Below, one piece after another: positions 16,187 to 42,720 of a DNA stretch of 48,312 nt. Under the pieces are notes generated by a model. It saw nothing but the letters and a program-made list of their open reading frames with translations. It was not told where the DNA came from and ran no database searches. Numbering within the stretch: the first letter of the stretch is position 1; every line of letters begins with the position of its first letter. A program made the translations under genes and the position numbers. Source of the stretch: Coleofasciculus chthonoplastes F2-STO-03 (lineage in GTDB: Bacteria > Cyanobacteriota > Cyanobacteriia > Cyanobacteriales > Coleofasciculaceae); the NCBI GenBank assembly GCA_040222015.1, contig JAVJWO010000023.1, positions 1-48,312 of the forward strand, given 5' to 3'.

Positions 16187-16227
16187 GGGCTTTGTGAATA
16201 AAAGGTTACGGTTTCAATCTATGAAAA

Positions 16228-18282: not shown

Positions 18283-18289
18283 GATTGGT

Positions 18290-18964: not shown

Positions 18965-18973
18965 GGTTTCCCC

Positions 18974-19138
18974 TTATCGTTCTTTTTTTCGTTCTAATAT
19001 TTTCAAGACTTGTTCCACACAAGCCGTCACAATGGCGTCTGTTTCCTGAGCACCTGCTCCCTTGGGGGAGAGGGAATGCGTCGGATTTGACTCAACAATC
19101 GTGGCGCGAACAATTAATTCTTTAATTTCTACAGGCAT
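18974..19138 (-). CDS. small eCIS protein (Afp6/DUF5908-like)
   Basis: Manual translation MPVEIKELIVRATIVES...IVTACVEQVLKILERKKER (54 aa); fills the gap between tube and Afp7; missed by the ORF track. Confidence 0.85.
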   Translation of the reverse strand: MPVEIKELIVRATIVESNPTHSLSPKGAGAQETDAIVTACVEQVLKILERKKER

Positions 19139-19140
19139 GG

Positions 19141-19623: not shown

Positions 19624-19639
19624 ATCGTAATTCTATTGC

Positions 19640-20101: not shown

Positions 20102-20125
20102 AACAGTTGTAACTCCTTATTGTAC

Positions 20126-20161
20126 GGACAAATGACAAATGACGAATGACAAAGGACAAAT
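20126..20161. repeat. STRR heptamer tandem repeat ((T/G)GAC(A/G)AA)n
   Basis: GGACAAA TGACAAA TGACGAA TGACAAA GGACAAA; same family reversed at ~26275-26310 and ~29650-29707. Confidence 0.8.
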
Positions 20162-20164
20162 AAC

Positions 20165-21565: not shown

Positions 21566-21584
21566 TGCTTTATTTTTTCAGAAC

Positions 21585-22457: not shown

Positions 22458-22495
22458 TGAAATTATCCATTTATTCGTCGATGTTCACCCCTAAA

Positions 22496-23074
22496 TCACA
22501 TTGAAGCCGGAAATACATCAATATTCGTTATATCAGCGCCAACGTCTAAAGAGTCGATATCCTCAAAGACAATCATCCGAACTTTATAAAGAACAGAAGG
22601 CACATAAGGATTGCCCAAAAGACTCCAAATATCTTTCTCTTCTTCAAAGGGAAGATTAACGAGTTCAAGGGTCAATTTTTGAATATCGGAATTGAGCGCT
22701 GGAGAATTTTGAGATTCAAAGATCCGATGACTGTGAAAAAAGGAAATAACCAGAGATAAAAGCTTTAAACACTGACTGTAGTCGGTAAAGTTGGCGATGA
22801 ACAGGACATAAAGATTCAAATACAACAGATGGGGGAGCAGAGTCTTAGTCGGTAGGGCAGTGATGTCCCGTTGATGTTGATAAGCAGCTCCAGAGCGAAA
22901 GGTTCGCTCTTCTTCGATATTTACCAGTACAGCCGAGAGTGCTTCTTTCGGCAAGGTAATCTCTCTGGGCGTCCTTTCCTGCACAAAGACAACCTCGAAG
23001 CCTTCCACCCCAGTTTTGACTTTGAGGTAGCTATTGAGTTGATCTTTAAGGAAGGTGAAAACATGATCAATCAT
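22496..23074 (-). CDS. DUF4255/Afp16-like tail terminator (cap)
   Basis: LVNIEEE, LNLYVLF.ANF.DY, IWS.LG..Y.PSVLYKVR; first gene of the operon. Confidence 0.88.
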   Translation of the reverse strand: MIDHVFTFLKDQLNSYLKVKTGVEGFEVVFVQERTPREITLPKEALSAVLVNIEEERTFRSGAAYQHQRDITALPTKTLLPHLLYLNLYVLFIANFTDYSQCLKLLSLVISFFHSHRIFESQNSPALNSDIQKLTLELVNLPFEEEKDIWSLLGNPYVPSVLYKVRMIVFEDIDSLDVGADITNIDVFPASM

Positions 23075-23203: not shown

Positions 23204-23619
23204 AATAATATGTGTGCCAAACTGACATACTCCTCTTGATCTACCCCTGCTAATCGCTGATATTTTCCAAAAAATATCGGGTGCGCCCAAAAGCTTTTGA
23301 GTTTTAAACGGATTAAAAATAGAATGACATAAACAAGGAGAAAATAAAACCATTTTCACAAAACTTAATTTATAAATTCTGTCCAAATCAGTTGTGAAAT
23401 GGCAATCCTTGCTGGATAAGCTTTTCGGACTCATTTTTGTTCACAAATCATTTAGACTGCCGAGAATCTCAAACTACAACCAACTGCTTATAGAAACTTT
23501 TCAGTGCGATCGCGCTGTTGTTTCTGGCTTTTCATAAGTTGCTGAATTTGTCAAGATGGTGGTGATAGTAATTTTCCGGTTCCGGGGTGGCACAGTATCA
23601 AGTGCCAACTGTGTGAGAT

Positions 23620-25529: not shown

Positions 25530-26240
25530 TCACGTCCATCCTCTCGTTTCTTCATCACTCAGCAATCGCTTTAACTTGAAACATTCCCGTTGCGCCCCTT
25601 GCAGCAAATGTTTCATCATCACGGATTCATTGGCATCAGCCGCTATAAATGCCGCATTTAGGGCAATATTGCGGATGTTGCCTCCGGGAAGATTGAGTTG
25701 TCCCAGTTTCTGGTAATCTAGCCCTTGAGTCGGAGTCTGTGGGGGAAAAATACGCCGCCAAATCTCGCTGCGGGAGGCGGCATCGGGGAGGGGAAACTGC
25801 ACCACAAACCGAATCCGGCGCATAAAGGCAGTATCAATATCTTCTTTCCGGTTGGAGGTGAGGATGGCAAGTCCCTGATAGGCTTCCATCCGTTGTAACA
25901 AATAACTAATCTCCACATTCGCGTAGCGGTCATGGCTATCTTTGACCTCGGTGCGTTTGCCAAAAATTGCATCCGCTTCATCGAAGAGTAAAATTGCCCC
26001 GCCGGTTTCAGCGGCATCAAAGATACGCTGTAGGTTTTTTTCAGTCTCGCCAATATATTTACTCACCACTGCCGAGAGGTCAATGCGGTAGAGGTCAAGA
26101 TGAAAGAGATTAGCTAGGACTTCTGCTGCCATGGTTTTCCCCGTGCCGCTTTGACCGTAAAATAGGGCGCTGATCCCTAAGCCACGACTTCCTTTACCCG
26201 CAAAACCCCACTCTTGGTAAACTTTGGCACGGTGTTTCAG
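25530..26240 (-). pseudogene. 5'-truncated duplicate of the AAA+ ATPase at 27657-29609
   Basis: Near-identical DNA to ~27660-28368; in-frame stop just upstream of the duplicated segment; first ATG lies after Walker A. Confidence 0.8.
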
Positions 26241-26678
26241 ATCGGTGGTAACAATTAACGTGAACGGTGGAGATCGTCATTTGTCATTTGTCATTTGTCA
26301 TTCGTCATTCATCCTTTGTAAGGGTTTGAGGCTTGTTTACAAAACAAGCGTGGGCGTGTTGTTTTCTTTTGTCCGACTACTTAATCGTGCTGTCCGTCTG
26401 AACTTAATACATTTTCCTGTTGCCTATCTCGTTGGAGCGCTTTGGCGAATACGGGAAAATTGGAGCAAAATTTACGTTTCCTTTTTAAAAAGACCGTTTT
26501 CCATGAAGATTATGTAAAATCACTATAGTTCATCTTGCGTCCCCTTGTGTTGGTCTGCTTTAGTAGTAAGTGTAGAAACTGAGATTCCGATTTCTGCATT
26601 GATGATGAGCACCTCATCAGCAGAGCGATCGCCATCCACGTAACTTGCTGTCTACCTTACCGAAAGAAGGATTTCACA

Positions 26679-27335
26679 ATGACAAAAGCTAAACTTTTCC
26701 TCGCAGTCTCCTTAGTCAGCGCATCCCTGAGCGCATCTCCCGCCTCTGCCAACCTCATCTTGGACGTGGGGCCAGGAGGAGTGCCATTACCCTGTAATAA
26801 CTGCGGTAACATTAGCGGTCAAACATTCGGCTGGTCCTTTGAAGTAACCAGCCCCATCAAGGTCGATGGGATTGGAGCCTGGGACTTCGGTGCAGATGGA
26901 ATTGGCCCCGCTCTCGAAGCTGGACTCTGGGATGACAGTGGGTCGTTACTGGGGTCTGCAACGATCTCCGACGCTAGCTCGCCCGAACCTTCTAATGGTA
27001 ATGGTGAATGGCTATTTGAGGATATTACTATGCAAACGCTCCTGCCGGGGATTTATTTTACCGGCCTCACGTTTTTCGATTCAACACCCTTGGCTCAGTT
27101 TGGCACAGCGTTCACGACTATCCCTGAAGTGACCTATCTTAATGCCACCGTAAGTAATGCAGGTCCTAACTCAGGTCTCGTTGTCCCAGACAGTCCTTTC
27201 AACACCGACGGAGTTTTTGGGTCAACTCTCCGCGTTGCTCAAGTCTCCGTACCTGAACCCGCTTCTGTACTCAGTCTCCTCACCCTCGGCACCCTCGGCG
27301 CAGTCTCAACCCTCAAACGCCAACTGAAAAAGTAG
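26679..27335 (+). CDS. PEP-CTERM sorting domain surface protein
   Basis: Signal peptide ending ASPASA; C-terminal VPEPASVLSLLTLGTLGAVSTLKRQLKK. Confidence 0.9.
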   Translation: MTKAKLFLAVSLVSASLSASPASANLILDVGPGGVPLPCNNCGNISGQTFGWSFEVTSPIKVDGIGAWDFGADGIGPALEAGLWDDSGSLLGSATISDASSPEPSNGNGEWLFEDITMQTLLPGIYFTGLTFFDSTPLAQFGTAFTTIPEVTYLNATVSNAGPNSGLVVPDSPFNTDGVFGSTLRVAQVSVPEPASVLSLLTLGTLGAVSTLKRQLKK

Positions 27336-27656
27336 TTTCCTCGACTGCCCGTAACCGTGTAGACTGAACTTGTAGAAACTTATGGGTTCAGTCTTTCAAC
27401 TCGTCTCCCCAAATAGGCTGATTGCTTATAGGGAGCCTCTAAGTCTAAGGCTGATGTTTTTGAAGTATAACTTTCCTCTTGAATGACTACCTTGATGCCT
27501 ATTAATTCACACTTATAGGTAATCTGGTCGATTAACTTAGCATGAGGAATATTCACAAACTTTTGATTATGACCTTTGCCCAGATTAACCTCTTGTTTCC
27601 AGCCTTCATTTACAATTTTCTACAATTTTGCCCGCAACAGTTCAAAACCCTTCAGC

Positions 27657-29609
27657 TTAAGTCCATCCTCTGGTTTCTTCATCACTCAGCAATCGCTTTA
27701 ACTTGAAACATTCCCGTTGCGCCCCTTGCAGCAGATGTTTCATCATCACGGATTCGTTCCCATCAGCCGCTAGAAACGCCGCATTCAGGGCAATATTGCG
27801 GATGTTGCCTCCGGGAAGATTGAGTTGTCCAAGTTTCTGGTAATCTAGCCCCTGGGTCGGAGTTTGTGGGGGGAAGATACGCCGCCAAATCTCGCTGCGG
27901 GAGGCGGCATCGGGGAGGGGAAACTGCACCACAAACCGAATCCGGCGCATAAAGGCAGTATCGATATCTTCTTTCCGGTTGGAGGTAAGGATGGCAAGTC
28001 CCTGATAGGCTTCCATCCGTTGTAACAAATAACTAATCTCCACATTCGCGTAGCGGTCATGGCTATCTTTAACCTCGGTGCGTTTGCCAAAAATCGCATC
28101 CGCTTCATCAAAGAGTAAAATTGCCCCTCCAGTTTCAGCAGCATCAAAGATACGCTGTAGGTTTTTTTCCGTCTCGCCAATATATTTACTCACCACTGCC
28201 GAGAGGTCAATGCGGTAGAGGTCAAGATGAAAGAGATTAGCTAGGACTTCTGCTGCCATGGTTTTCCCCGTGCCGCTTTGACCGTAAAATAGGGCACTGA
28301 TCCCTAAGCCGCGACTCCCTTTACCCGCAAAACCCCAATCTTGGTAAACTTTTGCCCGGTGTTTCAGGTGGGTGGCGATATCCGCCAGAATCTGGCGCTG
28401 TTGTTCAGGAATCACTAAATCGTCCCAGACGGCAGTAGAGTTGAGGCGTTGAGCTAAGTCATCTAGGCGAGGGCGGGCTTGGCGACGGCAGTAATCCCAT
28501 AATAGGTTCGGGTTTGCAGGGGTTTGCCCATTTTCCGCGACTGAGGCGGCAATTTTATAGCGATCGCTGGCAGCTTGAATGGAGGATGAGCTGAGGTTAA
28601 ACTGAGAGGCAAGCTGATCTAGATGTCCGTTGAGGTGGTTGCTGTAAGCACCCAGATGAGTTGACCAGATCACCCGCTGTTCTTGTGAACTGAGGGGGGG
28701 AACATCAAAGCAGTGAACTGGATAGAGTTTAGTTTTGATCCGTTCTCTGCCACTCAATAGAACTGGAGTCCGCAGATTTTCCACAAATGTAGACACAGAT
28801 GAGGAATCATTGTCCGAGAGATGATCACAATCGAGCAGCAGAAAGCTATCGGTTAGCCAAGCTTCTCGTTCCCAGCGTTGTTTGATAGTCAGCAGTTCCT
28901 GGGTTTGGCAGGGAAGGGAATCCGCCGACATGACGTGTAAGCTATAGCCTAAGCGAGTGGCAATTTCTAACGCCATGCGATAGTTGGCGGACAATTCCCC
29001 ACCTGAGAGTTGCAACACAGAAGTGTCGGGGGAGGATTCTGAGATGCTGGCGACTAATTGCTCGACAATCTGTTCTTGAGCGGGAGAGAGAACCAGAGTC
29101 GCTATACCAGTCGGTACTGTACTGACGATACCTGCCAATTTCTGATCATCGGCGTCTTCGCCTAAGAGATAACAGAGAATGCGCTGATCTAGAGCAATGC
29201 GAGACAGAGAAGCTGGATAACTGGCAGATAATTCAATTAATTGCCAGGAATGTAAGGGGGAAAGAGGCGACAAGACTGACCAACTGGCTTCTGGTAACGA
29301 GGAAAGACAAAACGCCAGCGTGGGATAATTTTTTTGAGCATCGCCATGAACTTTGGCAAATAATTCGGCAAAAGAAGGCTCGATTTCAAATCCCAGACAC
29401 AGAAGCAGGACATCCCGTTCAAATGAGGAGAGCGCGAAGCGTTGACACAGTACATCTAGGGTATAGGATGGTGAAAAAGGTTTGGGTTCGAGTGGGGGCT
29501 GCTCTGTGCCTTCAAGGGTATTTTCTAGATATTGACGGATACGCTCAAGGTCATGGAGCAGATTGTTAAAGTTTTCCAGTCGCCAGAGTGACATTAGGGA
29601 TGTTTCCAT
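27657..29609 (-). CDS. AAA+ ATPase (Afp15-like, eCIS-associated)
   Basis: WDDLVIP, Walker A GQSGTGKT, SKYIGETEKNL, Walker B LLFDEADAIFGKR, DRYAN.E.SYLLQRME. Confidence 0.9.
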   Translation of the reverse strand: METSLMSLWRLENFNNLLHDLERIRQYLENTLEGTEQPPLEPKPFSPSYTLDVLCQRFALSSFERDVLLLCLGFEIEPSFAELFAKVHGDAQKNYPTLAFCLSSLPEASWSVLSPLSPLHSWQLIELSASYPASLSRIALDQRILCYLLGEDADDQKLAGIVSTVPTGIATLVLSPAQEQIVEQLVASISESSPDTSVLQLSGGELSANYRMALEIATRLGYSLHVMSADSLPCQTQELLTIKQRWEREAWLTDSFLLLDCDHLSDNDSSSVSTFVENLRTPVLLSGRERIKTKLYPVHCFDVPPLSSQEQRVIWSTHLGAYSNHLNGHLDQLASQFNLSSSSIQAASDRYKIAASVAENGQTPANPNLLWDYCRRQARPRLDDLAQRLNSTAVWDDLVIPEQQRQILADIATHLKHRAKVYQDWGFAGKGSRGLGISALFYGQSGTGKTMAAEVLANLFHLDLYRIDLSAVVSKYIGETEKNLQRIFDAAETGGAILLFDEADAIFGKRTEVKDSHDRYANVEISYLLQRMEAYQGLAILTSNRKEDIDTAFMRRIRFVVQFPLPDAASRSEIWRRIFPPQTPTQGLDYQKLGQLNLPGGNIRNIALNAAFLAADGNESVMMKHLLQGAQRECFKLKRLLSDEETRGWT

Positions 29610-29788
29610 AGATAAGTAGGTGGGAACAATTAAAGTGAATGGTGGGGATCGTCATTCGTCATTCGTCATTCGTCATTCGTCATTTGTCATTCGTCATTCG
29701 TCATTCATAATACTCGTTTAGCGAGAAGCAGGCTACGTCCTTGGTAAAGATTTGAGGAGTGTTGAGAACATTTAACTTCGTCGAGTTT

Positions 29789-29891
29789 ATAGCGTTTTCA
29801 TTTGAGTTGTGAACCCCACCCCTGCCCTCCCCTTAGCAAGGGGAGGGTTTGGGAGGGGTAAGATTTTCACTTTTCACTTGGAAATGCTATA
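29789..29891. repeat. MITE-like element (ATAGC...GCTAT ends) enclosing a C/G-rich hairpin repeat
   Basis: ATAGCGTTTTCA...GGAAATGCTAT ends; internal CCCTCCCCTT-AGC-AAGGGGAGGG; related hairpin at ~48090-48143. Confidence 0.55.
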
Positions 29892-29922
29892 TTTCCACCA
29901 AATTACTTAAGGTAGATGATAC

Positions 29923-30573
29923 ATGAACAGAATAAGTGAGCCAAGAAGCATTGATCAACCTACGGATAAATTAAGTGTCTTCACTCGTTTTGGGTTACTT
30001 GTCGTCAAGAATTTTTTTGATCCTGAACTATGCCGGAGAATTCGAGAGCAAGTCCGCTCAACGAGTGATTGGCAATCAGGAGAGGTTCGTGATGATGAAA
30101 ATTGGGTCGTCGATGAGACAGTCCGAAAAACTGAGTATGCTGGAGTTTCAGAATCGACAGAATTGTTGGTCAAACGTCGTTTAATGGCGCTTAAGCCCAG
30201 ATTGGAAAGTCATTTCTCTGTAGAACTCACTGCCTGTGAAGGAGTAAATTTCTTGTTTTACAGTCACGGTGGTTTTTATTTACCCCACCAGGATAGTAAC
30301 ATGGCAACGGATGCACCCGAGCTGTTACAAAAGCGTCGGGTGTCTGTTGTTATATTTCTTAATCAAGAAGCCGAGGAACCTCACCCCGATTGCTATGGTG
30401 GGGGGGCGTTAGTCTTCTATGGTTTGCTGAAAGATCCACGTTGGGCAGAGTGGGGTTTTCCGATAAGCAGTGAAACGGGTTTATTGATTGCTTTTCCCTC
30501 TCATCTTATGCATGAGGTTGAACCAGTTACCCATGGCGAAAGATATACGATTGTGAGCTGGTTTTTGCTATAA
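29923..30573 (+). CDS. 2OG-Fe(II) oxygenase (prolyl-4-hydroxylase-like)
   Basis: HQD iron ligands, GG.L.F, HEVEPVTHGERY (distal His and 2OG-binding Arg). Confidence 0.88.
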   Translation: MNRISEPRSIDQPTDKLSVFTRFGLLVVKNFFDPELCRRIREQVRSTSDWQSGEVRDDENWVVDETVRKTEYAGVSESTELLVKRRLMALKPRLESHFSVELTACEGVNFLFYSHGGFYLPHQDSNMATDAPELLQKRRVSVVIFLNQEAEEPHPDCYGGGALVFYGLLKDPRWAEWGFPISSETGLLIAFPSHLMHEVEPVTHGERYTIVSWFLL

Positions 30574-30715
30574 ACTGGAGTTTAGACTAGGAGTAAGGAT
30601 TGAGGTCTGTGTTGAGTTTATTAATTATCCTGGTTGCGCTCGCCTTTCAAAAGTATAGCGCTTCGCGCTGACTTCTGACTCTTGTGGTATCTTAGTAGAA
30701 AATGGGTTTTATCCT

Positions 30716-31348
30716 ATGGTTACGACAATAACGCTAGCCGAGCAGAGAACCTTGCTTTTTAATATCAGTTGGCAAACCTTTAAAATAATGCTGACTGAAA
30801 TGGGTTCTGAGCGATTAACCCGATTAGCATATAACTCTGGAATGGTCGAAATAATGACTCCACTAATGGCTCATGAAAATTCGAACCGATTCATTGAAGG
30901 CTTAGTTATTGTACTTTGCGAAGAGTTGGGCTTGGAGGTTAAACGAACGGGTTCATTAACGTTGACACGAGATGATTTGGAATGTGGAGGCGAACCAGAC
31001 AGCAGCTACTACATTGAAAATGAGTTCTTGGTACGGGATAAACAAGAAATTGACTTAGCTTCTGATCCACCTCCAGACTTGGTATTAGAGGTAGAATACT
31101 CTCGATCTAAGGTTAATAAGCTTCAACTTTATGCAGCGATGGGGATTCCTGAATTTTGGCGTTATAACGGGAGCGTGTTGCGAATCTATAGACTTGAATC
31201 CGGAGAATATTTAGAGTCAAGTCATAGCCCTGTTTTTTCCCCTGTTGCTGTTAGGGAAATCCCCCGGTTTATCCAACAGAGTCGCAACGTTGGGGAAATA
31301 ACCTGCACTCGTAATTTTCGTAGCTGGGTGAAGCAGCAATTGCAGTGA
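30716..31348 (+). CDS. Uma2 family endonuclease
   Basis: ISWQTF, EPDSSYYI, PPPDLVLEVE, YAAMGIPEFWRY. Confidence 0.92.
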   Translation: MVTTITLAEQRTLLFNISWQTFKIMLTEMGSERLTRLAYNSGMVEIMTPLMAHENSNRFIEGLVIVLCEELGLEVKRTGSLTLTRDDLECGGEPDSSYYIENEFLVRDKQEIDLASDPPPDLVLEVEYSRSKVNKLQLYAAMGIPEFWRYNGSVLRIYRLESGEYLESSHSPVFSPVAVREIPRFIQQSRNVGEITCTRNFRSWVKQQLQ

Positions 31349-31585
31349 CGCTAACTAGAACTTGCTGCACAAAGCAGAAAATCTTAGCCATCAATGCTTT
31401 GAGATATAGCTTTGAGATATATTGACAGTTGCTTTTCTTATAGCGATCACTCTCAACATTGGTGTTTTTAGTCTAATTCTATGAAAGTGCAGAATAGCCA
31501 GCTTTCAGAAAATTGATAGCATGACTTCATCCCTTAGAGCAGCAACGCCAAGTTTGCGTTGCCAGGGTTTCCTTGTTCAGCTCTT

Positions 31586-31927
31586 TTATGAACAACATTC
31601 TTTGACCTTTGCCTCCAAGTTAGAGATCCTTTGAGTACTGCTCCCTACCTGTAAATCCCCCTCCTTGCCCGGATTTGAAAAGGGAGTACCACCTGCTTTA
31701 CCTGCGGGTAAGCGCTGTATTGATCGTGTGTTTTGCCTTTTTTGCAGAGTTTTGGAGACATTACCAATCATGGAACTAAGGCCACGCAGAGAACTACCAG
31801 AATCAGAAGAGGTAGAGTCTGATTTGGCTGGGGTTGACGCTGAACTGGTCGAACTGCTGCCCTTGCTACTCTCTTGGCGACTGGTTTTCCTTGAGTTTCC
31901 TTTCGATCTTGATGCCCGTGATTTCAT
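31586..31927 (-). CDS. Ser-rich leader-type small protein (candidate eCIS cargo), copy A
   Basis: GGAGG RBS; MKSRASRSK... paralogous to 33592-33855 and to the N-terminus of 32254-32997. Confidence 0.65.
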   Translation of the reverse strand: MKSRASRSKGNSRKTSRQESSKGSSSTSSASTPAKSDSTSSDSGSSLRGLSSMIGNVSKTLQKRQNTRSIQRLPAGKAGGTPFSNPGKEGDLQVGSSTQRISNLEAKVKECCS

Positions 31928-32243
31928 TCTTATCCTCCAGGGTGTTACTAAGATACTTTGCTACTTACAGTTCAATAGTTAATAGGAATAAGCTTAAGGG
32001 AATTTTCTGATTTGTGCAAGTCTTTGGTTGTATGACTTTACAAAAATTAAAACACTTCAGATGACTATCAGATCTGCCTGAATTTATTCCTGTATGATGA
32101 GCAAAAAAGGTACTATAGCCAGATGCCATGCCCGAGTTTTTTGTCCAGTCAACCCACCTAATTAGAAGACGAAGGAAGCGGGAAAATTTGTATAAATGAT
32201 TTGTGAAAATAAATGGGGTTAAAACCCTTACCCTGTAAGAATT
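31800..32243. repeat. diverged direct repeat copy A (upstream region plus 5' of leader gene); copy B at ~33731-34172
   Basis: Colinear shared blocks such as GTGTTACTAAGATACTTTGCTACTTACAGTT, TGATTTGTGCAAGTCTTTGGTTGTAT, GTATAAATGATTTGTGAAAATAAATGGGG. Confidence 0.9.
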
Positions 32244-32253
32244 CTGAAACTCT

Positions 32254-32997
32254 TTAGCCCGTTTGTTGTATGACATGGGTTAACTCGTGAGCAAGCAAAT
32301 GTTTTCCGTCTGTACTACTCGGATTGTAGGCTCCCTGGTTAAAGAAAATATCTTGCTCAGTAGTAAACGCCTCCGCTTCTATGGCGTCGTTCAACGCTTG
32401 GGCATTACTGTCTGTATGAATTCGCACATGGCTAAAATCTACTCCAAAAGCTTCCTCCATCGGCTCGCGAATATTTGATTGTAGGGGCATTCCTTTTCCG
32501 CTTTCCTGATCGATAGCTACTTCTACTTCTGGAGACGCTTCCATTCCCCCATCATCAGTAGACTGTCTGTGTAAGGCTGATTCTCGTCGTATCGGTTGTA
32601 TGTTTTCCGCGCTCACCTGTTCTAAGTTCGTTCCCATTTCAGGTTGTACCGACTCAGGAGATTCAATCTGTTGAATCACTTTTTCTGCCATAGCTTCGGC
32701 TTCTTGTTCATCCTGATCTTGCGGTTGACTAATCTGCATTTGTGGGTGAATGCGAGTTCCTTTAGTGCGGGTGGCTGATCGGCTATTTTGTTGGAGGGTA
32801 CGGGACACATTATCGACCAAGGAACCAGGACGATAGAAAACTCCACCGTAATCAGAACTATAATCGGAAGACGTGGATTCTGTTTGGGCTGTCATGGTAG
32901 AAGCACTGGAAGAATCCTTGCTGCTGTTCTTCTCTTGGCGTGTTACGTTTCTTGAGTCATTTTTTGAGCGGTGTGCCTTCATCGTTTGATTTACCAT
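32254..32997 (-). CDS. DUF4157 (eCIS core domain) protein without a C-terminal effector domain
   Basis: ISQPQDQDEQEAEAMA, MEEAFGVDFSHVRIHTD, AEAFT...IFF, LLAHELTHVIQQ; stop two codons later; alternative start MKAH at 32982. Confidence 0.9.
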   Translation of the reverse strand: MVNQTMKAHRSKNDSRNVTRQEKNSSKDSSSASTMTAQTESTSSDYSSDYGGVFYRPGSLVDNVSRTLQQNSRSATRTKGTRIHPQMQISQPQDQDEQEAEAMAEKVIQQIESPESVQPEMGTNLEQVSAENIQPIRRESALHRQSTDDGGMEASPEVEVAIDQESGKGMPLQSNIREPMEEAFGVDFSHVRIHTDSNAQALNDAIEAEAFTTEQDIFFNQGAYNPSSTDGKHLLAHELTHVIQQTG

Positions 32998-33338
32998 TAA
33001 TTTGCGATCGGTGCGCCTCTAGTCATTAAATCAATGGACAAAAGTTGACGGCGGGTGGTAAGCGCATCTCGGATGGCGAAGCCCCTATGAGTTAATTCGG
33101 CTGCCCATACCACCACATTGCTTTTGAGGACGGCAATCCCTGTGACTTTCGCTCCTGGGTCAATTTTTAATCTGTATTCTGAGACTTGAGAGTCCTTCAC
33201 TTGTGTGTCATGCAAAATGATGGTGAATGGAAAGCGACGAAGCACTGACGCTCTGCCAGTACGAAGCAACTTTCTTGCGCGTGCTGGGTGAGTAGGAGCG
33301 AGGGGTTTTTTATTTTTGTCCAGTACAAACACAAACAT
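32997..33338 (-). pseudogene. iscB: truncated IscB (RRXRR/PLMP + RuvC-I) of an IS200/IS605-family element
   Basis: VFVLDKNKKPLAPTHPARARKLL, FPFTIIL, LKIDPGAKVTGIA, AAELTHRG; similarity stops at RRQL, so HNH and RuvC-II/III are missing. Confidence 0.85.
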
Positions 33339-33344
33339 AAGTTT

Positions 33345-33557
33345 CAATCTCGGATTGCTCCGGTAACGTGTTCCTCGACAAAGTTAAAGAGGCTTGTTCG
33401 GTCAAAGACACTGGTTTAGCTCAATAAACCTGTTTAATCCTTGACGACAGGGCTACAAACTGGAAAGCATTCGTAGGTGTCTTGACCTCTTTAACGTAGG
33501 CTTTCAAGCCTCAGTCTGGCTATCTTGTCCACAATTGTCCTGTGTTGAGCGGATAGC
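33345..33557 (-). ncRNA. omegaRNA / HEARO-type RNA upstream of iscB
   Basis: Minus strand GCTATC...GATAGCCAGACTGAGGCTTGAAAGCCTACGTT...ACACCTACGAATGCTTTCCAGTTTGTAG...TTGTCGAGG; multi-stem pattern directly 5' of iscB; ends approximate. Confidence 0.75.
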
Positions 33558-33591
33558 ACGCCGCGTACAACAGCGTGCGAGACACAGAAGA

Positions 33592-33855
33592 TTACGGTTT
33601 GGGTGGAACCAATCGATCAATTCGCGCTGTCGCGATTCGTCGGTCTAAGGAAGCCCCTTGGTTCGCTTTTTGTTGGAGTGTATGAGAGACATTATCGGTC
33701 ATGGAGCCTGGGCTATGCATAGAACCACTGGACTCTGAAGGAGTGGAGTCTGATTTGGCTGAGGTAGACGCTGAATTGGTCGCACTACTGCTCTTGCTGC
33801 TCTCTTGGCGACTGGTTTTCCTTGAATCTTTCGATCTTGATGCCCGTGATTTCAT
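33592..33855 (-). CDS. Ser-rich leader-type small protein (candidate eCIS cargo), copy B; possibly truncated
   Basis: GGAG RBS; MKSRASRSKDSRKTSRQESS...PGSMTDNVSHTLQQ. Confidence 0.6.
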   Translation of the reverse strand: MKSRASRSKDSRKTSRQESSKSSSATNSASTSAKSDSTPSESSGSMHSPGSMTDNVSHTLQQKANQGASLDRRIATARIDRLVPPKP

Positions 33856-34226
33856 TTGTATTCTCCACAGTGTTACTAAGATACTTTGCTACTTACAGTT
33901 AAATAGTTAATAGGGATAAGGCTACGGGAATTGTTTGATTTGTGCAAGTCTTTGGTTGTATAACTTTACAAAAATTGAAACACTTCTGATAATTATCGGA
34001 GCTGCCGGAATTTCTTCCTGTATGATAATCAGGAAAGGCATTGTAGGCAGATGCCATGCCCAACTTTTTTGTCCAGTCAACCGACCTAATTAGGAAGCGA
34101 AGGAAGCGGGGACAGTTGTATAAATGATTTGTGAAAATAAATGGGGCTAAAACCCTGACCCCGTAAGAATTGCTAGTTCACAACTAATTTAGACACCCCA
34201 GAATTTAGCGTTGATCAGCCATTGTC

Positions 34227-36077
34227 ATGTGTGGATTTGCCGGATTTATTGATTTCCAAGATGACCAACACCCCCAACACTATTGGGCATATTTGACCCA
34301 AATGGGGCAACCCTTGCGACGCCGTGGTCCCGATGACGAGCAAGTGGTGAACTCACCACCGCTTTGGTTGATTTATCGCCGACTCTCGATTATTGATGTT
34401 CCTGGAGGGGGACAACCGATTTGGAATGAAAACCAAACGATGTGCGTAGTCGTCAATGGGGAAATTTACAACCACATTGAGTTACGCTCTCAATTACGAG
34501 AACACCATGACTTTCGGACTCAATCGGATGCCGAAATTGTGCTGCATTTATATGAAGAACGCGGTTTTGAAGCCCTCACCGCCCTAAACGGGATGTTCGC
34601 GATCGCGCTGTGGGACAAGCAACGACAACAATTATTTCTGGCACGCGATCGCTTGGGCATTAAACCCTTATATTACACTCAAGTCGGTTCACAACTGATC
34701 TTCGCCTCCACCCTCGCCTCCCTGCTGGCTCACCCCAATACCCCTTGGCATCCTCAGTTCCAAGACTTAACCAATCTCAGTGCCACCACATCCTACGTTC
34801 GAGGCATTCATCGTTTAGCTGGGGGACATTACCTGTTGTTCGATGCCCATACTCAAACCGTAACCCCTGAATGTTACTGGAACCTAGCCGATTACTTAGT
34901 TACCGAACCCATCCCTGACAGCCGCACTCCCAGCGATTATATTCAGGACTATCGGGAGTTATTTGTCGATAGTGTCACCAAGCGGCTAATGAGTGATGTA
35001 CCTGTAGCAGCCAGTTTGAGTGGTGGACTCGATTCTGGAGTCATTGTCGCCATTTCCCGTCAGATTCAACCTGATTTACACTGCTTCAGTATTAGCGATG
35101 ATGACACACGGCAAAATGGAGATATTGACGCCGCCGAACAGCTTTGCCAACAGTTGCATCTGCCCTTTCATCCCCTGTGGTTTGATACCGAAACGTTCTT
35201 AGAGCAACTCGATTTTTCATTAGAGACATTTGAATATTTTATTGGGTTAATTGATGCACCTAAATTGCACCTAGAATGGATTTATAAGCACGAACTCTAT
35301 CGCTATGCGAAAACCCTGATGCCCGATCTCAAGGTAATGCTACTGGGACAGGGGGCAGATGAATTTGCCGGAGGTTACTCAAAAGCCGAGGATAAAACCA
35401 CTCAAACCTGGCAAGACTATACATCGGAATTAATCCAAAAAGAACAGCAAAATTTACAACTCAAAGAGCCAACTGGACTCGATGACGGTTCATTTATATT
35501 CGACTACACACTCAAATCTTATCCTTCTGGTTGCACTCCCTTTCAAAAAGAAATGTTGATGGGTATCTATTCCCTACAAGACTATAACCTGTGGCATGAA
35601 GACCGCAGTTCCATGAGCCAAAGTATCGAAGCTCGTGTCCCGTTTTTAGATCATCGTTTGGTCGAATATCTTGCCGCCATTCCGCCCCAGCATCACCCAA
35701 CCCTATTTTGGAATAAAACGATTATCCGCCAAATGGCTCAAGCCTGGTTGCCCCACAGTTTCATCCATCGCCAAAAATCTCACGCCACAGAACCTAAACT
35801 CTACAACTCGATGAAGCATAAAATCGTACAGCGAATTTTTCCAGCGTTTAAGCAAAAATATCTGGATAATCCGGGTCAGCTCTTGATTGATATCGAGCCA
35901 GAAACCCTGCTAGAGTGGTTCGAGCAATCCTCACACCAGCAAACTTATAGTATCGCCTGTGAGCAGTTATTAACTGGGATGAAAATGGCTGTTTTTAAAC
36001 AGATTTGCTCCCAGCGGAATTCTCCGGTAACTGGAGAGTACTTGTATCGGCGATCACCGTTATATTTCACAGGTTAA
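34227..36077 (+). CDS. asparagine synthetase B-like glutamine amidotransferase
   Basis: N-terminal MCG, RRGPD, RRLSIID, NGEIYN, ARDRLGIKPLYY, SLSGGLDS, GQGADE, EARVPFLD. Confidence 0.9.
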   Translation: MCGFAGFIDFQDDQHPQHYWAYLTQMGQPLRRRGPDDEQVVNSPPLWLIYRRLSIIDVPGGGQPIWNENQTMCVVVNGEIYNHIELRSQLREHHDFRTQSDAEIVLHLYEERGFEALTALNGMFAIALWDKQRQQLFLARDRLGIKPLYYTQVGSQLIFASTLASLLAHPNTPWHPQFQDLTNLSATTSYVRGIHRLAGGHYLLFDAHTQTVTPECYWNLADYLVTEPIPDSRTPSDYIQDYRELFVDSVTKRLMSDVPVAASLSGGLDSGVIVAISRQIQPDLHCFSISDDDTRQNGDIDAAEQLCQQLHLPFHPLWFDTETFLEQLDFSLETFEYFIGLIDAPKLHLEWIYKHELYRYAKTLMPDLKVMLLGQGADEFAGGYSKAEDKTTQTWQDYTSELIQKEQQNLQLKEPTGLDDGSFIFDYTLKSYPSGCTPFQKEMLMGIYSLQDYNLWHEDRSSMSQSIEARVPFLDHRLVEYLAAIPPQHHPTLFWNKTIIRQMAQAWLPHSFIHRQKSHATEPKLYNSMKHKIVQRIFPAFKQKYLDNPGQLLIDIEPETLLEWFEQSSHQQTYSIACEQLLTGMKMAVFKQICSQRNSPVTGEYLYRRSPLYFTG

Positions 36078-36136
36078 ACGTCACATCAATTTCAGCCTAT
36101 CAACAACTTTAAACAATCCTCAAAACCCGAACAGCC

Positions 36137-37024
36137 ATGACTAACTATTTTGTGATCAAGAGCAAACTTAATAACTTAGTTCTTCAAGTTGACGACACCA
36201 ATCGTATTGCTACAGATTTCGGCATTCAATCCCAGCATATCTGGGTGGTAACCGCTCAAGAAACCCAAGCAGATAACCAACTGTGGATGCTGAATCCGCA
36301 AGGACAAATTCAGAGTAAGTTTAACGGTTTAGTTCTGGATATCGGAACAGAAAATTTACTGACTCTTTCTCATAAATATCACCAATACTTAAACTATCTC
36401 AGTAGTCAAGGTCTAGTTTATCCTCCCCTTTTAGTGACCTCTCCTCAAGATGATCAGCTCACTCAGCAATGGACAATAGAATGGAAACAGAATGCCTTTG
36501 CGATTAAAAGTAACCAAGATGGTAAGGTATTAGACATTTTTGGCGCTTTACCTTCAGAGTTTGTGCCAATTACCCTGGCTTCATTCTCTCCCAGTGCGCT
36601 CAATCAACAATGGGAAATTATGACTCCTGCGTCACCTTCAGCTTCAGGAACACGGGACACCTTGAATTCTGGTGAAATTCTCAAACCGGGTGAATGTCTA
36701 ACATCAGCGAACGGAGTTTACTCCTTCTGCTATCTGACAAATTCCAATCTCGTACATTATGAGAATAAAGACAAGCCAAATATGAGGGTTTTGTGGCAAG
36801 CCAACAGCCATTTATATCCTCCTGCTTACCAATGCCATTTGCAACAATCAGATGGAAAGTTAGTCGTCTTCAATGTACCAGGTCATGCTACTTGGTCTAG
36901 TCAGAAATTTGGTTCACAGTACCCACCAAGTCAACTGATTGTGCAGGATAACGGTCATGTCGTTATTTATGATAAGAAGGGTGCGCCCTATTGGGATTCG
37001 CTAGAAGAGACGAATGGGTCTTAG
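36137..37024 (+). CDS. lectin protein: ricin-B beta-trefoil-like plus bulb-type (B-)lectin domain
   Basis: QxW repeats (NQLW, QQW, NQQW) with VLDI; C-terminal DTLNSGE.L..GE.LTS.NG, QSDGKLV, VQDNGHVVIY...W. Confidence 0.75.
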   Translation: MTNYFVIKSKLNNLVLQVDDTNRIATDFGIQSQHIWVVTAQETQADNQLWMLNPQGQIQSKFNGLVLDIGTENLLTLSHKYHQYLNYLSSQGLVYPPLLVTSPQDDQLTQQWTIEWKQNAFAIKSNQDGKVLDIFGALPSEFVPITLASFSPSALNQQWEIMTPASPSASGTRDTLNSGEILKPGECLTSANGVYSFCYLTNSNLVHYENKDKPNMRVLWQANSHLYPPAYQCHLQQSDGKLVVFNVPGHATWSSQKFGSQYPPSQLIVQDNGHVVIYDKKGAPYWDSLEETNGS

Positions 37025-37051
37025 ATTACCGTAGCTGCAACTGTAGCTTTT

Positions 37052-37157
37052 TATAGCAACCGCCATGGCTGTTAGGACACATCATTTATGTAGAGACGCG
37101 CCATGGCGCGTCTCTACAATGGTGCCGAACGTCCTAATCGATGTGTCTATTGCTATA
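37052..37157. repeat. MITE-like element TATAGCA...TGCTATA with internal perfect palindrome
   Basis: 7-bp terminal inverted repeats; GTAGAGACGCGCCATGGCGCGTCTCTAC inside. Confidence 0.65.
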
Positions 37158-37304
37158 ACACCTGGAACAGATACATTTAACCCGGAAAAATCTAATAGGT
37201 GTTCCGAGGGAACTATGAATTGCATCGGCAGCAGGGACACCCTCGCTGAAAATTAGGATTGGCAAGGGTTATGGCTTAACTTGTCACCAATGCCCTGCGC
37301 CAAG

Positions 37305-38084
37305 TTAGGGACAATCGCGATTAGAAATAGTTCTATCGGGTAGAGTAGTATGACAAAATACTGCACCAGTTAAATCAGCATCTTGTAAATTAGCGCGACT
37401 CAGGTCAACATCCCAAAGGTTCGCTTCGCGCAAATCAGCATTGGTTAAGAAGCTATTACTCAAATCAGCACCTCTGAGGTAAGCGCCATTTAAATTCGCG
37501 TTATTAAGTCTGGCATTACTCAGGTTCGCTTCTCTAAGATTAGCGGCTTTCAGATTAGCACCATTGAGTCTAGCTTTATCTAGATTGGCACGTCTGAGAT
37601 CAGCGCCTCTGAGTTCCGCTAGAGTGAGAATCGATTGAGACAGATTGGCTTCACTCAAGTTGGCTAAACTTAACTGCGTTTGGGTTAAGTTAGCACCAAT
37701 GAGACTAGCATTACTTAGGTTAGCCGCTTTGAAGTTAGCTTCTCTGAGATCCGCACCCCTGAGATCTGCACCACCGAGAAAGGCGCGAGTTAGATCAGCA
37801 TTTTTTAAGTCAGCGTTGCTGAGGTTGGCATTAATCAGGTCAGCATATTTGAGGTTAGCATCACTGAGAATCGCTTGAGTGAGATTGGCTTGACTCAAAT
37901 CGGCATAAGTCAAGATACTGTGACTCAGGTTAGTATTACTCAAATTGGCATTGGTTAAGTCACAGGTAGAACATTCGCCAGTGTCTTGTAACTGTTTCAG
38001 ATGGTCAGGATTTTCCGCGTTTAGAGGAGTGGCTGACCAAAAGGGCGTTAGAAGTAAGAGGATAGCCAGAATATTAAGTTTCAT
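37305..38084 (-). CDS. exported pentapeptide repeat protein
   Basis: Signal peptide, CSTCDL cap, long A(D/N)Lxx repeats. Confidence 0.93.
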   Translation of the reverse strand: MKLNILAILLLLTPFWSATPLNAENPDHLKQLQDTGECSTCDLTNANLSNTNLSHSILTYADLSQANLTQAILSDANLKYADLINANLSNADLKNADLTRAFLGGADLRGADLREANFKAANLSNASLIGANLTQTQLSLANLSEANLSQSILTLAELRGADLRRANLDKARLNGANLKAANLREANLSNARLNNANLNGAYLRGADLSNSFLTNADLREANLWDVDLSRANLQDADLTGAVFCHTTLPDRTISNRDCP

Positions 38085-39117: not shown

Positions 39118-42100
39118 ATGGCGAGAAATTGTTTGCGGATTAATCATCAAGGTGATTCGATTCAACTTTCCTGGCAACGCGGACAATCTAATCCTCGCCC
39201 TGCGCCATCAGTAACGTTTACACATCCCTTTGACAAGCAAGCTTTAGCTGACTTGCGCTGGTATCTGGAAGAGTATTTGCGTTTTCCCTATGGCATTTAT
39301 CCAGATCATGCCGCCAAGATTGAGCAAAAGTTTCAAGACTGGGGAGAGCAGTTGTTTGAATTAGTCTTTCGCAGTAGTGAGCAAGCGCGGCAATTTTTTC
39401 AGGCGGCGACTTACGAAGGGTTAAATCAGTGCGAACTGGTGATTACATCCGATAGTCCAGAGGTGCTGAATTTACCTTGGGAGTTATTGTACTCGCCGAG
39501 CGATCGCCAATTTCTCGCCCCGTCTTTGGCAGGGATGTCTCGTAGCCTCAGCGATTATGCGGTGCGGGCAGAAATGGGGCAGTTAACCCAGGATAAGCTG
39601 AATATTTTGCTGGTGATTGCTCGTCCTTATGGCGAGAGGGATATTGGGCTGAGAACCATTGCCCGTCCGTTGCTGGAAGCCATATCAAATATTCGCAAAA
39701 AAGTCAACCTCAAAGTGTTGCGTCCGCCCAGCTTTGAGCAGTTTGAGCGGGAACTGAATGCCAATCGCGGGTTTTATCACATCGTTCATTTTGATGGACA
39801 TGGGGATTTTGATCCCAACAGCACAGGATTTCAGCATACCTTGGGTGCTGCGGGGCAGGGATTGTTGGTGTTTGAAAAGAATGATGGTTCGCCCGATATT
39901 GTTACCGCCGCACAGATTGCTCAGAATTTGGCAGATTGCCGGGTGCCGATTTTTGTGTTGAATGCTTGTAAATCGGGGCAGGAGGGAGAGGAAAAGTTTT
40001 CTTCAGTAGCGACGCGCTTGGTGTCCTTGGGGGCTAAGGGTGTCGTGGCAATGGCTTATTCTGTTTATGCGGAAGCCGCTAAACATTTCATGGGGCGGTT
40101 GTATGGGGAGTTGGCGGCGGGTGCGACTCTCGACAGTGCAATGGCGGCGGGGCGAAAGGACGTTTTGAATAAGCCGCAGCGCCCTAGTCCCAAGGGTGAT
40201 AAGCCTCTGCAAGATTGGCTGGTGCCGGTGCTATATCAGCAGGAATCCTACACGCCGTTTATTCCCACAACTACAGATGCAGATATTCTGGATATTGAGG
40301 ATTTCCTAGAGCCAACGGTTAGCAATTTGGTGGGTTTCCCAGAGGAGGGGGCTTACGGCTTTGTTGGGCGAGACTACGATATTTTGCGGTTAGAGCGGGC
40401 GTTTCGCCAAAACAATATTGTGCTGTTGCAAGGCATGGCTGGTGTGGGCAAAACTGAGTTAGCTTGTGGTTTTGGGCGGTGGTTAGAGGAGACTCAGGGA
40501 CGTACTGGCAAGATATTCTTTATGTCGTTTGAGCATGGGGCGACGCTGAGTAATGTTGTGAATCAAGTGGGCAGGGAAGTGTGGGGTGACAAGTTTTCCC
40601 AGTATCCGGCAGAGCAACAACAGCAAGCTGTACTGAAATATCTGAAAACTCAGCCAAGTCTGTTGATTTGGGACAACTTTGAGCCTGTGGCGGGGTTTCC
40701 GGCGGGGAATGAGCCGTTGCTGAATGCGAGTGAGCGAGACAGTTTGCAGCGGTTTCTCAAAGAGTTGCGTAGCGGGAAGTCTTGGGTGTTGATTACCAGT
40801 TGGCGGGAGGAGCGTTGGCTGGATTGTGGTTACAGGTTACTGGATTTGCGGGGACTGCGCGAGCAGGATGTGGAGGAGTTGGCGGCGAAGATTCTGCAAA
40901 CTGCGGGGGTAGATAGGGCGAAACTTCCCAAGGAGTATTTGGATTTGTTGAAACTCTTGGGAGGACATCCGCTATCTTTGCGAGTGGTGTTGCCGCACCT
41001 TAAGACGCAGAGTCCAGTGCAATTGATTGAGGCTTTGCGGCAGGGGTTGGATACTTTTCAGGGGGCAGAGGAGGAAGGTAGAGATAAATCTCTTACTGTT
41101 TCGCTGGATTATTCCTTTGCTAAATTGTCTGAACGCGCTCGTCAGCATTTGCCCTTTTTAGCCCTATTCTCTGAGCGAGTTAATGCTGATTTGCTCGATG
41201 CTGTTTCTGGAACTGCCGATAGTGACATAGGGCAGGCATATCAGGCTGTCTTTGGGGAGAACTTGCAAAAAGCTGATTGGCTGAAGCTAGTCAACGAAGC
41301 AATAGAAGCAGGTATCCTAGAACATCTCGATCTAACCATCTACAAAATTCATCCCGCCCTTCCCTGGTATCTGCGTCAACGGCTATCTGAGCAACACGCT
41401 GCCCAGGAGGTCAGCGAACTGGAAAAAAAGTTGCTGGTTTTCTACGCATATTTCGCGGATAAATACTATAGAGAACTAATCAGCAATGCTGAACTTGCAA
41501 GCTTTGTGCTGCGAGTCGAAGAGCCAAATTTGTTGCAAAACTTGCGGCTGGCAGAACAACAGCAGAGCTGGGAATATGCTCAAGCAATTCTACAAGCTTT
41601 GGACGAAGTGTATGAGCGGATAGCTCGCAAACCCGAATTGAGGGCACTGCGACAACGGGCACTGGGTCAAATTGGCATCCATTTGTCAGAAGCAAAGGCG
41701 AAGGGGCAAAATGCCTCCAACTTCTGGATGTATCTGCGGGGAGTAGATGCTAACGAGGCTCTAATTGTTGGTGATTTGGAAGGAGCAAGAGCAATTTATC
41801 AAGAAATCCTTGATGAGCTGACCTCCTTAAATGACCCCTCTGTGAATGGCAACATTGCTGTTGCGTATCATCTATTGGGCGTGGTAGCACAGAAGCAACG
41901 GCACTTTGAGGAGGCGATTGCTTTCTACCAACAAGCCCTGCAAATTTATAAAGACGCGGAAGATTGGTCTAAGGCTGCAACTATCTATCACCAACTGGGG
42001 AGGGTAGCAGAAGATCAATGGTATTGGGATGAGGCGATTGCTTTCTACCACAATGCCCGGAAAATTTTTGAAGATGCAGGAGATTGGTACTCTTGTGCTA

Positions 42101-42720
42101 AGGTCTATTACCAACTAGGCAATGTAGCTTATTTGCAACAGCATTGGGATGAAGCAAAACTCTTTTACTACAAATCCCTGAAAATAAAAGAAAATGCTGG
42201 GGATTGGTATTCTGCTGCTAATGACTATTACCAACTAGGGTTAGTAGCACAGAAGAAACGACGCTGGGATGAAGCAAAAGACTTTTACCACAAAGCTTTG
42301 AAGATAAAAGAAGACGCTGGAGATACTTACAACGCTTCATACCAGTATTACGGATTGGGAGAGATTGCCAAAGAGCAAGGAGATTTTGATAGCGCAGTTG
42401 CCTATTTTCAAAAAGCGTTCGCAGCTAGAAGTGCAGCGAACGATTTGCACAGAGCATTCTTAACTCTGGTCGTATGGGGTCGAACCCTGGAAACACAGGA
42501 AAAATGGATAAAGGCGGTAATAATTTACATTCAAGCTTTAGCAATTAGCATAAAGCATCATCAAGAATTCGTCGGCGTGTCTGTCCGAAATTTAGGACGA
42601 ATGTATAAGGTTATGGGAAAATCCCAATTTGAGGCAGTTTGGCGAGAAGTGACAGGTGAGGAGTGCCCGGAAGAGATACGTTCAGAAATTCAGGCAGCAA
42701 GTGAAGAAAACGAGGAATGA
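39118..42720 (+). CDS. CHAT (caspase-like) protease - STAND NTPase - TPR protein
   Basis: LPWELL, catalytic HFDGHG and LNACKS; Walker A GMAGVGKT, Walker B LLIWDNFE, GGHPL; ~40-aa TPR-like repeats at the C-terminus. Confidence 0.9.
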   Translation: MARNCLRINHQGDSIQLSWQRGQSNPRPAPSVTFTHPFDKQALADLRWYLEEYLRFPYGIYPDHAAKIEQKFQDWGEQLFELVFRSSEQARQFFQAATYEGLNQCELVITSDSPEVLNLPWELLYSPSDRQFLAPSLAGMSRSLSDYAVRAEMGQLTQDKLNILLVIARPYGERDIGLRTIARPLLEAISNIRKKVNLKVLRPPSFEQFERELNANRGFYHIVHFDGHGDFDPNSTGFQHTLGAAGQGLLVFEKNDGSPDIVTAAQIAQNLADCRVPIFVLNACKSGQEGEEKFSSVATRLVSLGAKGVVAMAYSVYAEAAKHFMGRLYGELAAGATLDSAMAAGRKDVLNKPQRPSPKGDKPLQDWLVPVLYQQESYTPFIPTTTDADILDIEDFLEPTVSNLVGFPEEGAYGFVGRDYDILRLERAFRQNNIVLLQGMAGVGKTELACGFGRWLEETQGRTGKIFFMSFEHGATLSNVVNQVGREVWGDKFSQYPAEQQQQAVLKYLKTQPSLLIWDNFEPVAGFPAGNEPLLNASERDSLQRFLKELRSGKSWVLITSWREERWLDCGYRLLDLRGLREQDVEELAAKILQTAGVDRAKLPKEYLDLLKLLGGHPLSLRVVLPHLKTQSPVQLIEALRQGLDTFQGAEEEGRDKSLTVSLDYSFAKLSERARQHLPFLALFSERVNADLLDAVSGTADSDIGQAYQAVFGENLQKADWLKLVNEAIEAGILEHLDLTIYKIHPALPWYLRQRLSEQHAAQEVSELEKKLLVFYAYFADKYYRELISNAELASFVLRVEEPNLLQNLRLAEQQQSWEYAQAILQALDEVYERIARKPELRALRQRALGQIGIHLSEAKAKGQNASNFWMYLRGVDANEALIVGDLEGARAIYQEILDELTSLNDPSVNGNIAVAYHLLGVVAQKQRHFEEAIAFYQQALQIYKDAEDWSKAATIYHQLGRVAEDQWYWDEAIAFYHNARKIFEDAGDWYSCAKVYYQLGNVAYLQQHWDEAKLFYYKSLKIKENAGDWYSAANDYYQLGLVAQKKRRWDEAKDFYHKALKIKEDAGDTYNASYQYYGLGEIAKEQGDFDSAVAYFQKAFAARSAANDLHRAFLTLVVWGRTLETQEKWIKAVIIYIQALAISIKHHQEFVGVSVRNLGRMYKVMGKSQFEAVWREVTGEECPEEIRSEIQAASEENEE

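Follow-up and report, generated by a model that had tools for sequence, protein, structure and literature searches.

We analyzed a 48,312-nt stretch of DNA from Coleofasciculus chthonoplastes F2-STO-03 (contig JAVJWO010000023.1; the whole stretch is referred to as the window), in which three minus-strand genes, designated C (33855-33592), B (32982-32254), and A (31927-31586), encode small proteins that begin with a common N-terminal leader and lie near an AAA+ ATPase gene and a contractile injection system (CIS) cluster. Gene C, which occupies a conserved slot, encodes 87 amino acids (aa), i.e., a leader with PGSMTDNVSHTLQ and a 25-aa tail ending in LVPPKP. The 242-aa product of gene B consists of a leader with PGSLVDNVSRTLQ, a linker, a helix with the pattern D-x-x-E-x-E-A (residues 90-107), and a DUF4157 domain with the residues HELTH, after which the protein stops 6 residues on. 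Gene A lies in a variable slot; its 113-aa product carries a leader with LSSMIGNVSKTLQ, the residues IQR, and a 50-aa tail (a Gly-rich linker and a heptad-like helix) that ends in ECCS. In the alignment, the amphipathic-helix motif of the leader covers residues 49-61 of C (33673-33711), with counterparts in B (32791-32829) and A (31742-31780), all on the minus strand. An initial annotation of this DNA had described three co-oriented genes with a common leader and complete divergence after the motif, and both points are borne out by the searches below; its list of motifs and tails contains two interchanged pairs, as PGSLVD belongs to the DUF4157 gene and PGSMTD to the gene with the short basic tail.

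The leader covers about 60 to 62 residues, which are 70% identical between A and C and 44% identical between A and B. A leader profile without any B-type row (profile A6) recovered B of the window at an E value of 5.8e-12 and B of a cyanobacterium of another order (G594; island locus L083) at 4.4e-13. A hidden Markov model (HMM) of the leader, run against 76,982 six-frame open reading frames (ORFs) of the window's genome (G000), retrieved A, B, and C only, with no other E value <0.8, and a broader leader model revealed no additional member among 18,009 N-termini of this genome. Because B is recovered by a B-free profile and the HMM is specific, the likeness of the leaders does not stem from Ser-rich composition. 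The tails are unrelated, their pairwise scores being reached by 912/5000 shuffles (A and C), 2856/5000 (A and B), and 1790/5000 (C and B). Six tail types follow the core leader (those of C and B, the CC-ended type of A, a helical type in P0002 and P0005, the type of P0008 and P0027, and that of P0024), in line with the proposal of the initial annotation that the leader stands on interchangeable tails. The trio and its common leader are genuine and evolve under purifying selection, with pairwise dN/dS values (all from small counts) of 0.23 to 0.41 for the leader, 0.35 for B, and 0.38 for C (0.18 for the C tail, on 3 changes).

NVSxT forms the invariant core of the leader and is conserved between orders; the Asn of the motif lies at residues 54 to 58 in 15 of the 17 proteins listed, and the hydrophobic moment of the motif is 1.7 to 2.2. 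Over residues 1-35, the Kyte-Doolittle values add up to -56 to -60, residues 6-21 carry a net charge of +2 to +4, and residues 1-83 of B mostly show pLDDT (predicted local distance difference test) values <55 in an AlphaFold2 model. Disordered, hydrophilic, basic, and rich in Ser and Thr, the leader fits the known loading sequences of extracellular CIS (eCIS). A ribosome-binding GGAG is retained ahead of A and C, and a sigma-70 scan yielded 2 sites (3.4 expected), none of them on the minus strand. In 4 of the 10 cluster members, gene callers produced a 213-aa B that lacks the leader.

The eCIS_core domain (PF13699) covers residues 166-241 of B (E value of 1.2e-32), whereas A and C are devoid of DUF4157. 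B ends 6 residues past its HExxH motif (HELTH; residues 232-236) and has no C-terminal payload. The same end is found in all intact orthologs, i.e., those of L041, P0012-P0021 (a 90% cluster), P0022 (Okeania), P0025, and G594; a nonsense-truncated effector was therefore rejected as the origin of B, since the end is shared with other genera. The close relatives of B are Coleofasciculus entries, and its start was placed at 32982, since a close kin of the window's genome (G001) has the upstream ATG in another frame. Both His residues of HExxH are invariant (71/71 rows), and the Glu is present in 70/71. The best structural match of the domain model was the VgrG2b effector domain (6h56; Z score of 7.4, root mean square deviation of 3.6, 99 residues aligned), and a Foldseek search with the domain gave no match under an E value of 0.001; the model suggests a zincin-like fold. 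Helix 90-107 is confidently modeled though flanked by disorder, and its vicinity contains the invariant D89, E92, and E94, which could provide a candidate third metal ligand. The orthologs at L083:12666-13586 and in P0025 carry a second, degenerate AHETxH stretch ahead of the full DUF4157.

The leader was also compared with other DUF4157 proteins, which were gathered with a profile dominated by this domain (profile A5) that served no other purpose. The core leader was absent from all 120 long DUF4157 proteins, and no full N-terminal domain (NTD)-DUF4157-toxin protein with it was seen; a weak search with residues 1-165 of B was negative for all 371 long candidates. The initial annotation had expected a leader HMM to find fusions to diverse toxin or DUF4157 C-termini; varied tails were indeed found, and no recognizable toxin was among them. 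Only 9 of 164 DUF4157 proteins had short tails, all of them B-type, a count biased by the prefiltering of 120 proteins to lengths of at least 549 aa. The four other DUF4157 genes of the genome have different N-termini, and three of them each adjoin their own paralog of the ATPase. Among 16 DUF4157 N-termini from G001 and G594 (a few of which start at an inner Met), 15 failed the leader score. The leader is thus common to the putative cargo of one system and absent from the other systems tested.

The C ortholog of G594 is 94 aa long and ends in VVPPKP; its tail match is reached by 26/5000 shuffles, and within the shared (L/V)VPPKP C-terminus, VPPKP is the sole part of the C tail kept between orders. 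An Atlas lookup with C returned a single match (0.78). Slot A is exchanged between strains, and other strains carry other tails. The A orthologs P0006 and P0007 retain the tail helix and the CC end. In these A-type tails (31586-31640 in the window), the conserved parts are the heptad-like helix and the end of CC and one further residue, and the middle varies; judged from the sequence, the CC end is possibly a disulfide knot or a lipidation site. Slot A of G594 holds two genes (271 and 301 aa) with a divergent leader, a helix at the same position, IQR, and a payload-like region of 190 to 240 residues without DUF4157. With the leader HMM, 6/100 shuffles reached the score of the 301-aa protein, and the 271-aa protein was outside the top 22; given these weak scores, their membership in the family rests on position. 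The score of a 230-aa protein encoded after the ATPase gene of G594 exceeded all 100 shuffles, and a GRLKLNF stretch is common to this protein and the P0008 tail. Residues 84-271 encoded by one G594 slot-A gene (L083:13676-14491) gave language-model matches of 0.85 to 0.89 to Spaetzle, NGF, and IL-17, with template modeling (TM) scores <0.5; mimicry of a host signal, in the likeness of animal cystine-knot cytokines, is a model-derived lead only.

This strain shows several further features at the locus. Between C and B lies an internally deleted IS200/IS605 IscB element (33011-33580, minus strand; HEARO RNA at 33363-33557 and an RRXRR fragment at 33347-32997), of which a longer copy is present elsewhere in the genome (C12:28014-29558). 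This remnant is a strain-specific insertion: G001 lacks it, as do contigs of sequencing runs X12 and X20, in which position 33010 is joined to 33581. Truncation by the insertion sequence (IS) element was rejected as the origin of the short C tail, since the C stop is unchanged in G001 and in the run contigs, where the element is missing. A and C lie inside duplicated DNA of 516 bp (84.7% identity), about 300 bp of which are upstream sequence, so that a copy of the C upstream region (33880-34171) stands in front of A (31952-32243, minus strand). In X12, about 106 other letters occupy the place of this copy, and G001 has a shorter, unrelated spacer there. As the C stop is kept in G001 and the B end elsewhere, neither the IS element nor the duplication explains the short genes. 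An intergenic repeat of 70 to 90 bp (34118-34195 and 23380-23457; 74 to 77% identity), which also occurs on C17, C207, and C216, delimits the duplication on its upstream side. In two RNA-library runs of one study, contigs from a related strain span C, B, and A as well as tube and sheath genes, which is no proof of transcription; one 2,206-nt contig ends at 33890. The bins of the AsnB-like and ATPase genes (see below) were uncovered by RNA-library contigs and covered by DNA runs, and this gap was not used as evidence.

The Afp15/Pvc15-type AAA+ ATPase gene (27657-29609, minus strand; a winged-helix domain and an AAA domain), which encodes a candidate loader, is 1,977 bp from A, in accordance with the distance of about 2 kb given by the initial annotation. 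Its orthologs are 93% identical in G001 and 72% identical in G594, and the best values in the other 50 family genomes are ≤45%. The three paralogs of the same genome are 48 to 50% identical to it, and the ATPases of G000, G001, and G594 form a clade apart from them (support of 100/100; 6 rows). A complex prediction for the ATPase and leader residues 30-87 scored 0.00, which is no evidence either way. A duplicate of the C-terminal 240 residues of the ATPase (97.5%) lies at 25530-26252, with G001 similarity only via the single copy; a short array of 7-bp tandem repeats lies between the ATPase and oxygenase genes (29649-29718), and comparable arrays occur near 20130 and 26280.

The CIS structural cluster (5951-23074, minus strand) encodes Pvc16, a sheath, two tubes, an Afp7-like protein, VgrG, gp25, a spike tip, baseplates, a fiber with an S74 chaperone, and a tape measure. 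The sheath matched 7adz (E value of 1e-141) and 7b5h (5e-136) best, AlgoCIS and the thylakoid-anchored CIS (tCIS) of Anabaena being closest; sheath and baseplate belong to the AlgoCIS/tCIS group, and no tCIS chain matched the fiber gene. All cluster genes are syntenic in G594 (40 to 77% identity). On the other side of the trio, a gene for a ricin-B and mannose-binding lectin protein (36137-37024, plus strand) has a 42% identical ortholog in G594. The order in G594 is lectin, four extra genes, AsnB-like gene, C, B, the 271- and 301-aa genes, 2-oxoglutarate (2OG) oxygenase, ATPase, the 230-aa gene, and CIS cluster. The extra genes (L083:5631-10101) are two without a Pfam match, a polyprenyl synthase gene, and a gene for an SCP2-like protein. 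In the window, a 1,200-aa CHAT-NTPase-TPR protein is encoded 2 kb past the lectin gene (39118-42720).

A search of 1.84 billion representatives returned 11 matches to the leader, 10 of which are family members and one a 2,518-aa nematode repeat protein. Genome searches covered 52 family, 401 order, and 401 class genomes, which are overlapping samples. Real copies were found in 2/52 family genomes (in this tally, as in that of the ATPase, the unpublished G063 counts as a noncarrier, and nothing else draws on it), in 2/401 order genomes (3 further weak matches with internal stops were set aside), and in G000 and G594 among the class genomes (one weak match with stops was set aside); a plasmid collection contained no match. 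The leader was therefore found in three sampled cyanobacterial genomes only (G000, G001, and G594), in each case beside a member of one Afp15-type ATPase clade. The tie to an eCIS ATPase made by the initial annotation is upheld by this clade and by the syntenic CIS island in two orders, and its description of the leader as lineage specific fails, as the leader is also present in G594 and in the Okeania record P0022. Its expectation that only eCIS-positive genomes would carry the leader holds for G000 and G594, in which the leader genes lie near both a CIS cluster and the ATPase, and is called into question by G001, in which the ATPase is adjacent and the structural orthologs were not found.

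These observations probably indicate that the leader is a system-specific loading sequence of this CIS, and loading would depend on the ATPase. The adjacent AAA+ ATPase would, like Pvc15 and Alg15, recognize the leader and thread the proteins into the tube. The cargo set may represent a split form of the usual NTD-DUF4157-payload protein, in which B would provide DUF4157 without a payload and act in trans as a chaperone or processing zincin, C would be a constant short peptide, and slot A would accept payloads that follow an [IVL]QR junction and are exchanged through recombination in the shared leader DNA. In AlgoCIS, loading depends on the disordered NTD, neither DUF4157 nor the C-terminal domain (CTD) is necessary, and Alg15 is needed; NTDs are alike within one system only (Ericson 2026, 10.64898/2026.05.27.728243). 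A chaperone role of DUF4157, in cis or in trans, has been proposed (Danov 2024, PMC11297309), DUF4157 genes adjacent to toxins have been described (Geller 2021, PMC8213781), and the DUF4157 proteins Alr3311 and Alr3312, encoded beside the tCIS cluster, were found in particles by mass spectrometry (Weiss 2022, PMC8894136).

Several points weigh against this interpretation. The tails of the window match no known toxin family, and that of C has just 25 residues. The first 8 positions of A, B, and C contain no aromatic residue; the presence of aromatic residues there is a score feature of Danov 2024 (PMC11297309), as a statistical trend and no strict rule. That work reports hydrophilic and basic eCIS signals and no conserved signal sequence. 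The likeness of the A and C leaders comes partly from a recent DNA duplication. In G001 (99% complete), C, A′, and the ATPase gene are intact, B and the AsnB-like and lectin genes are broken, and orthologs of VgrG and the sheath were not found (best matches of 27% and 48%); this state fits decay, yet the leader persists there without its own syringe. Since two of the three genomes with context are close kin, they represent one island and no independent co-occurrence. Sharing alone is ordinary, as a second leader family (MYKP...ANVMRSL) unites six Coleofasciculaceae proteins (L009, L026, L085, L103, L113, and L115), full-length DUF4157 cargo with unrelated C-termini. The helix of that family also lies at residues 54-58, and a profile score of 16.1 links it to ours (reached by 1/200 column shuffles; HH probability of 3%; three sequences); 10/158 N-termini beat all 100 shuffles, and a kinship of the two helices is treated as a lead only. 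The in-trans role of B is weakened by the reported lack of interaction between Cgo1 and Cgo2 and by the finding that Cgo1 toxicity does not require the HExxH of DUF4157 (Xu 2022, PMC8894135).

The same genes might instead encode proteins that serve the ATPase or syringe in a structural or regulatory capacity (e.g., a plug-like protein, an adaptor, a tube filler, or an inhibitor), with the leader helix as a binding motif and no delivery. B is payload free and C has a minimal tail, both conserved across orders, and no plug-like Cis6/Alg6 protein is annotated in the cluster, at which no dedicated search was aimed. Slot A, however, varies freely and in G594 includes the long payload-like regions, which fits cargo, and the leader bears the known cargo signature; we give such a partner role a slim chance. 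The view that the trio is debris, i.e., duplicated and truncated pieces of one DUF4157 effector gene without present function, draws on the IS remnant, the DNA duplication, and the partial ATPase duplicate of this strain, as well as on the broken alleles of G001. It is very improbable, as it is largely refuted by the B and C stops conserved across genera and orders and by the synteny in G594; the dN/dS values of the leaders and B and the GGAG kept in A and C also oppose it.

A further possibility, which is compatible with loading, concerns two plus-strand enzyme genes that flank the trio in both G000 and G594. The first encodes a 2OG-Fe(II) oxygenase (29923-30573; PF13640) with a 64% identical ortholog in the corresponding position of G594; among 201 genomes, its 8 matches comprise G000, G001, and six relatives at 39 to 51% identity. 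The second, divergent from C, encodes an AsnB-like glutamine amidotransferase that keeps its N-terminal Cys (34227-36077); it scores 360 bits with TIGR01536 (cutoff of 267) and 181 bits with the lasso cyclase model NF033535 (cutoff of 525), and its ortholog was found in G594 only among 301 genomes (71 to 72% identity). The six oxygenase relatives (L125-L130) all have lasso-cyclase-like neighbors; two cyclases and two B2 genes exceed their cutoffs, lasso-type precursors accompany five of the six, and neither the leader nor CIS genes occur in these stretches. L128 contains five tandem lasso precursors. Lasso precursors carry the motif YxxPxL...G...T, which was present in 5/6 of these control loci and absent from positions 27001-38000 of the window and from L083. 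With the lasso cyclase cutoff failed and no B1 or B2 gene among the 39 window ORFs of at least 87 aa that the family scan covered, the island is not a lasso cluster. Under a maturation scheme like that of ribosomally synthesized and posttranslationally modified peptides (RiPPs), C would be a precursor whose Pro-rich end is hydroxylated by the oxygenase and amidated by the AsnB-like enzyme, the B zincin would cut near IQR/IDR, and the leader would serve the enzymes, loading, or both. We consider this rather unlikely. It accords with the flanking position of both enzymes, the restriction of the AsnB-like gene to G594, the oxygenase relatives beside lasso-cyclase-like genes at six of six loci, the 2OG hydroxylase CanE, which acts on a lasso precursor (PMC10373908), and the VPPKP kept between orders. 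Against it stand the missing lasso cyclase, B1/B2, transporter, and lasso leader motif, the loss of AsnB in G001, where C is kept, and the four extra genes of the G594 island, since the enzymes may make a small molecule. Combined with loading, it would yield a CIS delivering posttranslationally modified micropeptides, in which the leader would direct to one tube a Pro-rich peptide that stays constant, small payloads that can be exchanged, and a DUF4157 zincin without payload, and a lasso-derived oxygenase and an amidotransferase would tailor the peptide; we regard this combination as unlikely, and if true it would link injection with RiPP chemistry and assign an in-trans function to DUF4157.

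For the loading-sequence interpretation, the locus offers a natural separation of parts, i.e., a nearly leader-only protein (C), the leader with DUF4157 (B), and the leader with a payload (A). To our knowledge, no consensus exists for CIS loading signals and no function has been established for DUF4157; an alignable leader on proteins of 87 to 242 aa makes both questions directly testable, and a leader profile exposes small cargo overlooked by DUF4157-based searches. The literature searched describes neither this leader family nor a B without payload, a constant C peptide, or the pairing with enzymes, although subscription papers and supplements may list such genes as predicted effectors.

The principle of a shared loading leader is already known from the Photorhabdus virulence cassettes (PVCs) and AlgoCIS, and the locus can be placed among these and other systems. 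The lasso clusters L125-L130 and that of CanE share with the island the oxygenase family, an AsnB-fold enzyme, and a short precursor; the island differs in an AsnB-like enzyme that keeps the catalytic Cys and falls below the cyclase cutoff, in lacking B1/B2, a kinase, and an exporter, and in a C protein without the lasso leader motif. The PVC signal peptides are likewise N-terminal, have low pLDDT, and form groups by sequence, with loading dependent on the ATPase Pvc15, whereas PVCs belong to lineage Ia and lack DUF4157 (Evans and Waterfield 2024, PMC11495950). DUF4157 in a neighboring gene is a theme of Geller 2021 (PMC8213781) and Danov 2024 (PMC11297309), whose available text contains no leader common to a DUF4157-only gene and its neighbors. 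The Anabaena tCIS with Alr3311 and Alr3312 is a cyanobacterial CIS of the same group with DUF4157 proteins near the cluster; the available text (PMC8894136) defines no leader there. AlgoCIS, with Cgo1, Cgo2, and Alg15, resembles the locus in a disordered NTD common within the system, DUF4157, a neighboring AAA+ ATPase, and a closely related sheath and baseplate. It differs in that Cgo1 and Cgo2 are NTD-DUF4157-CTD proteins of 498 and 1,228 aa, whereas here DUF4157 stands alone and the putative payloads, down to 25 to 70 residues, are carried without it.

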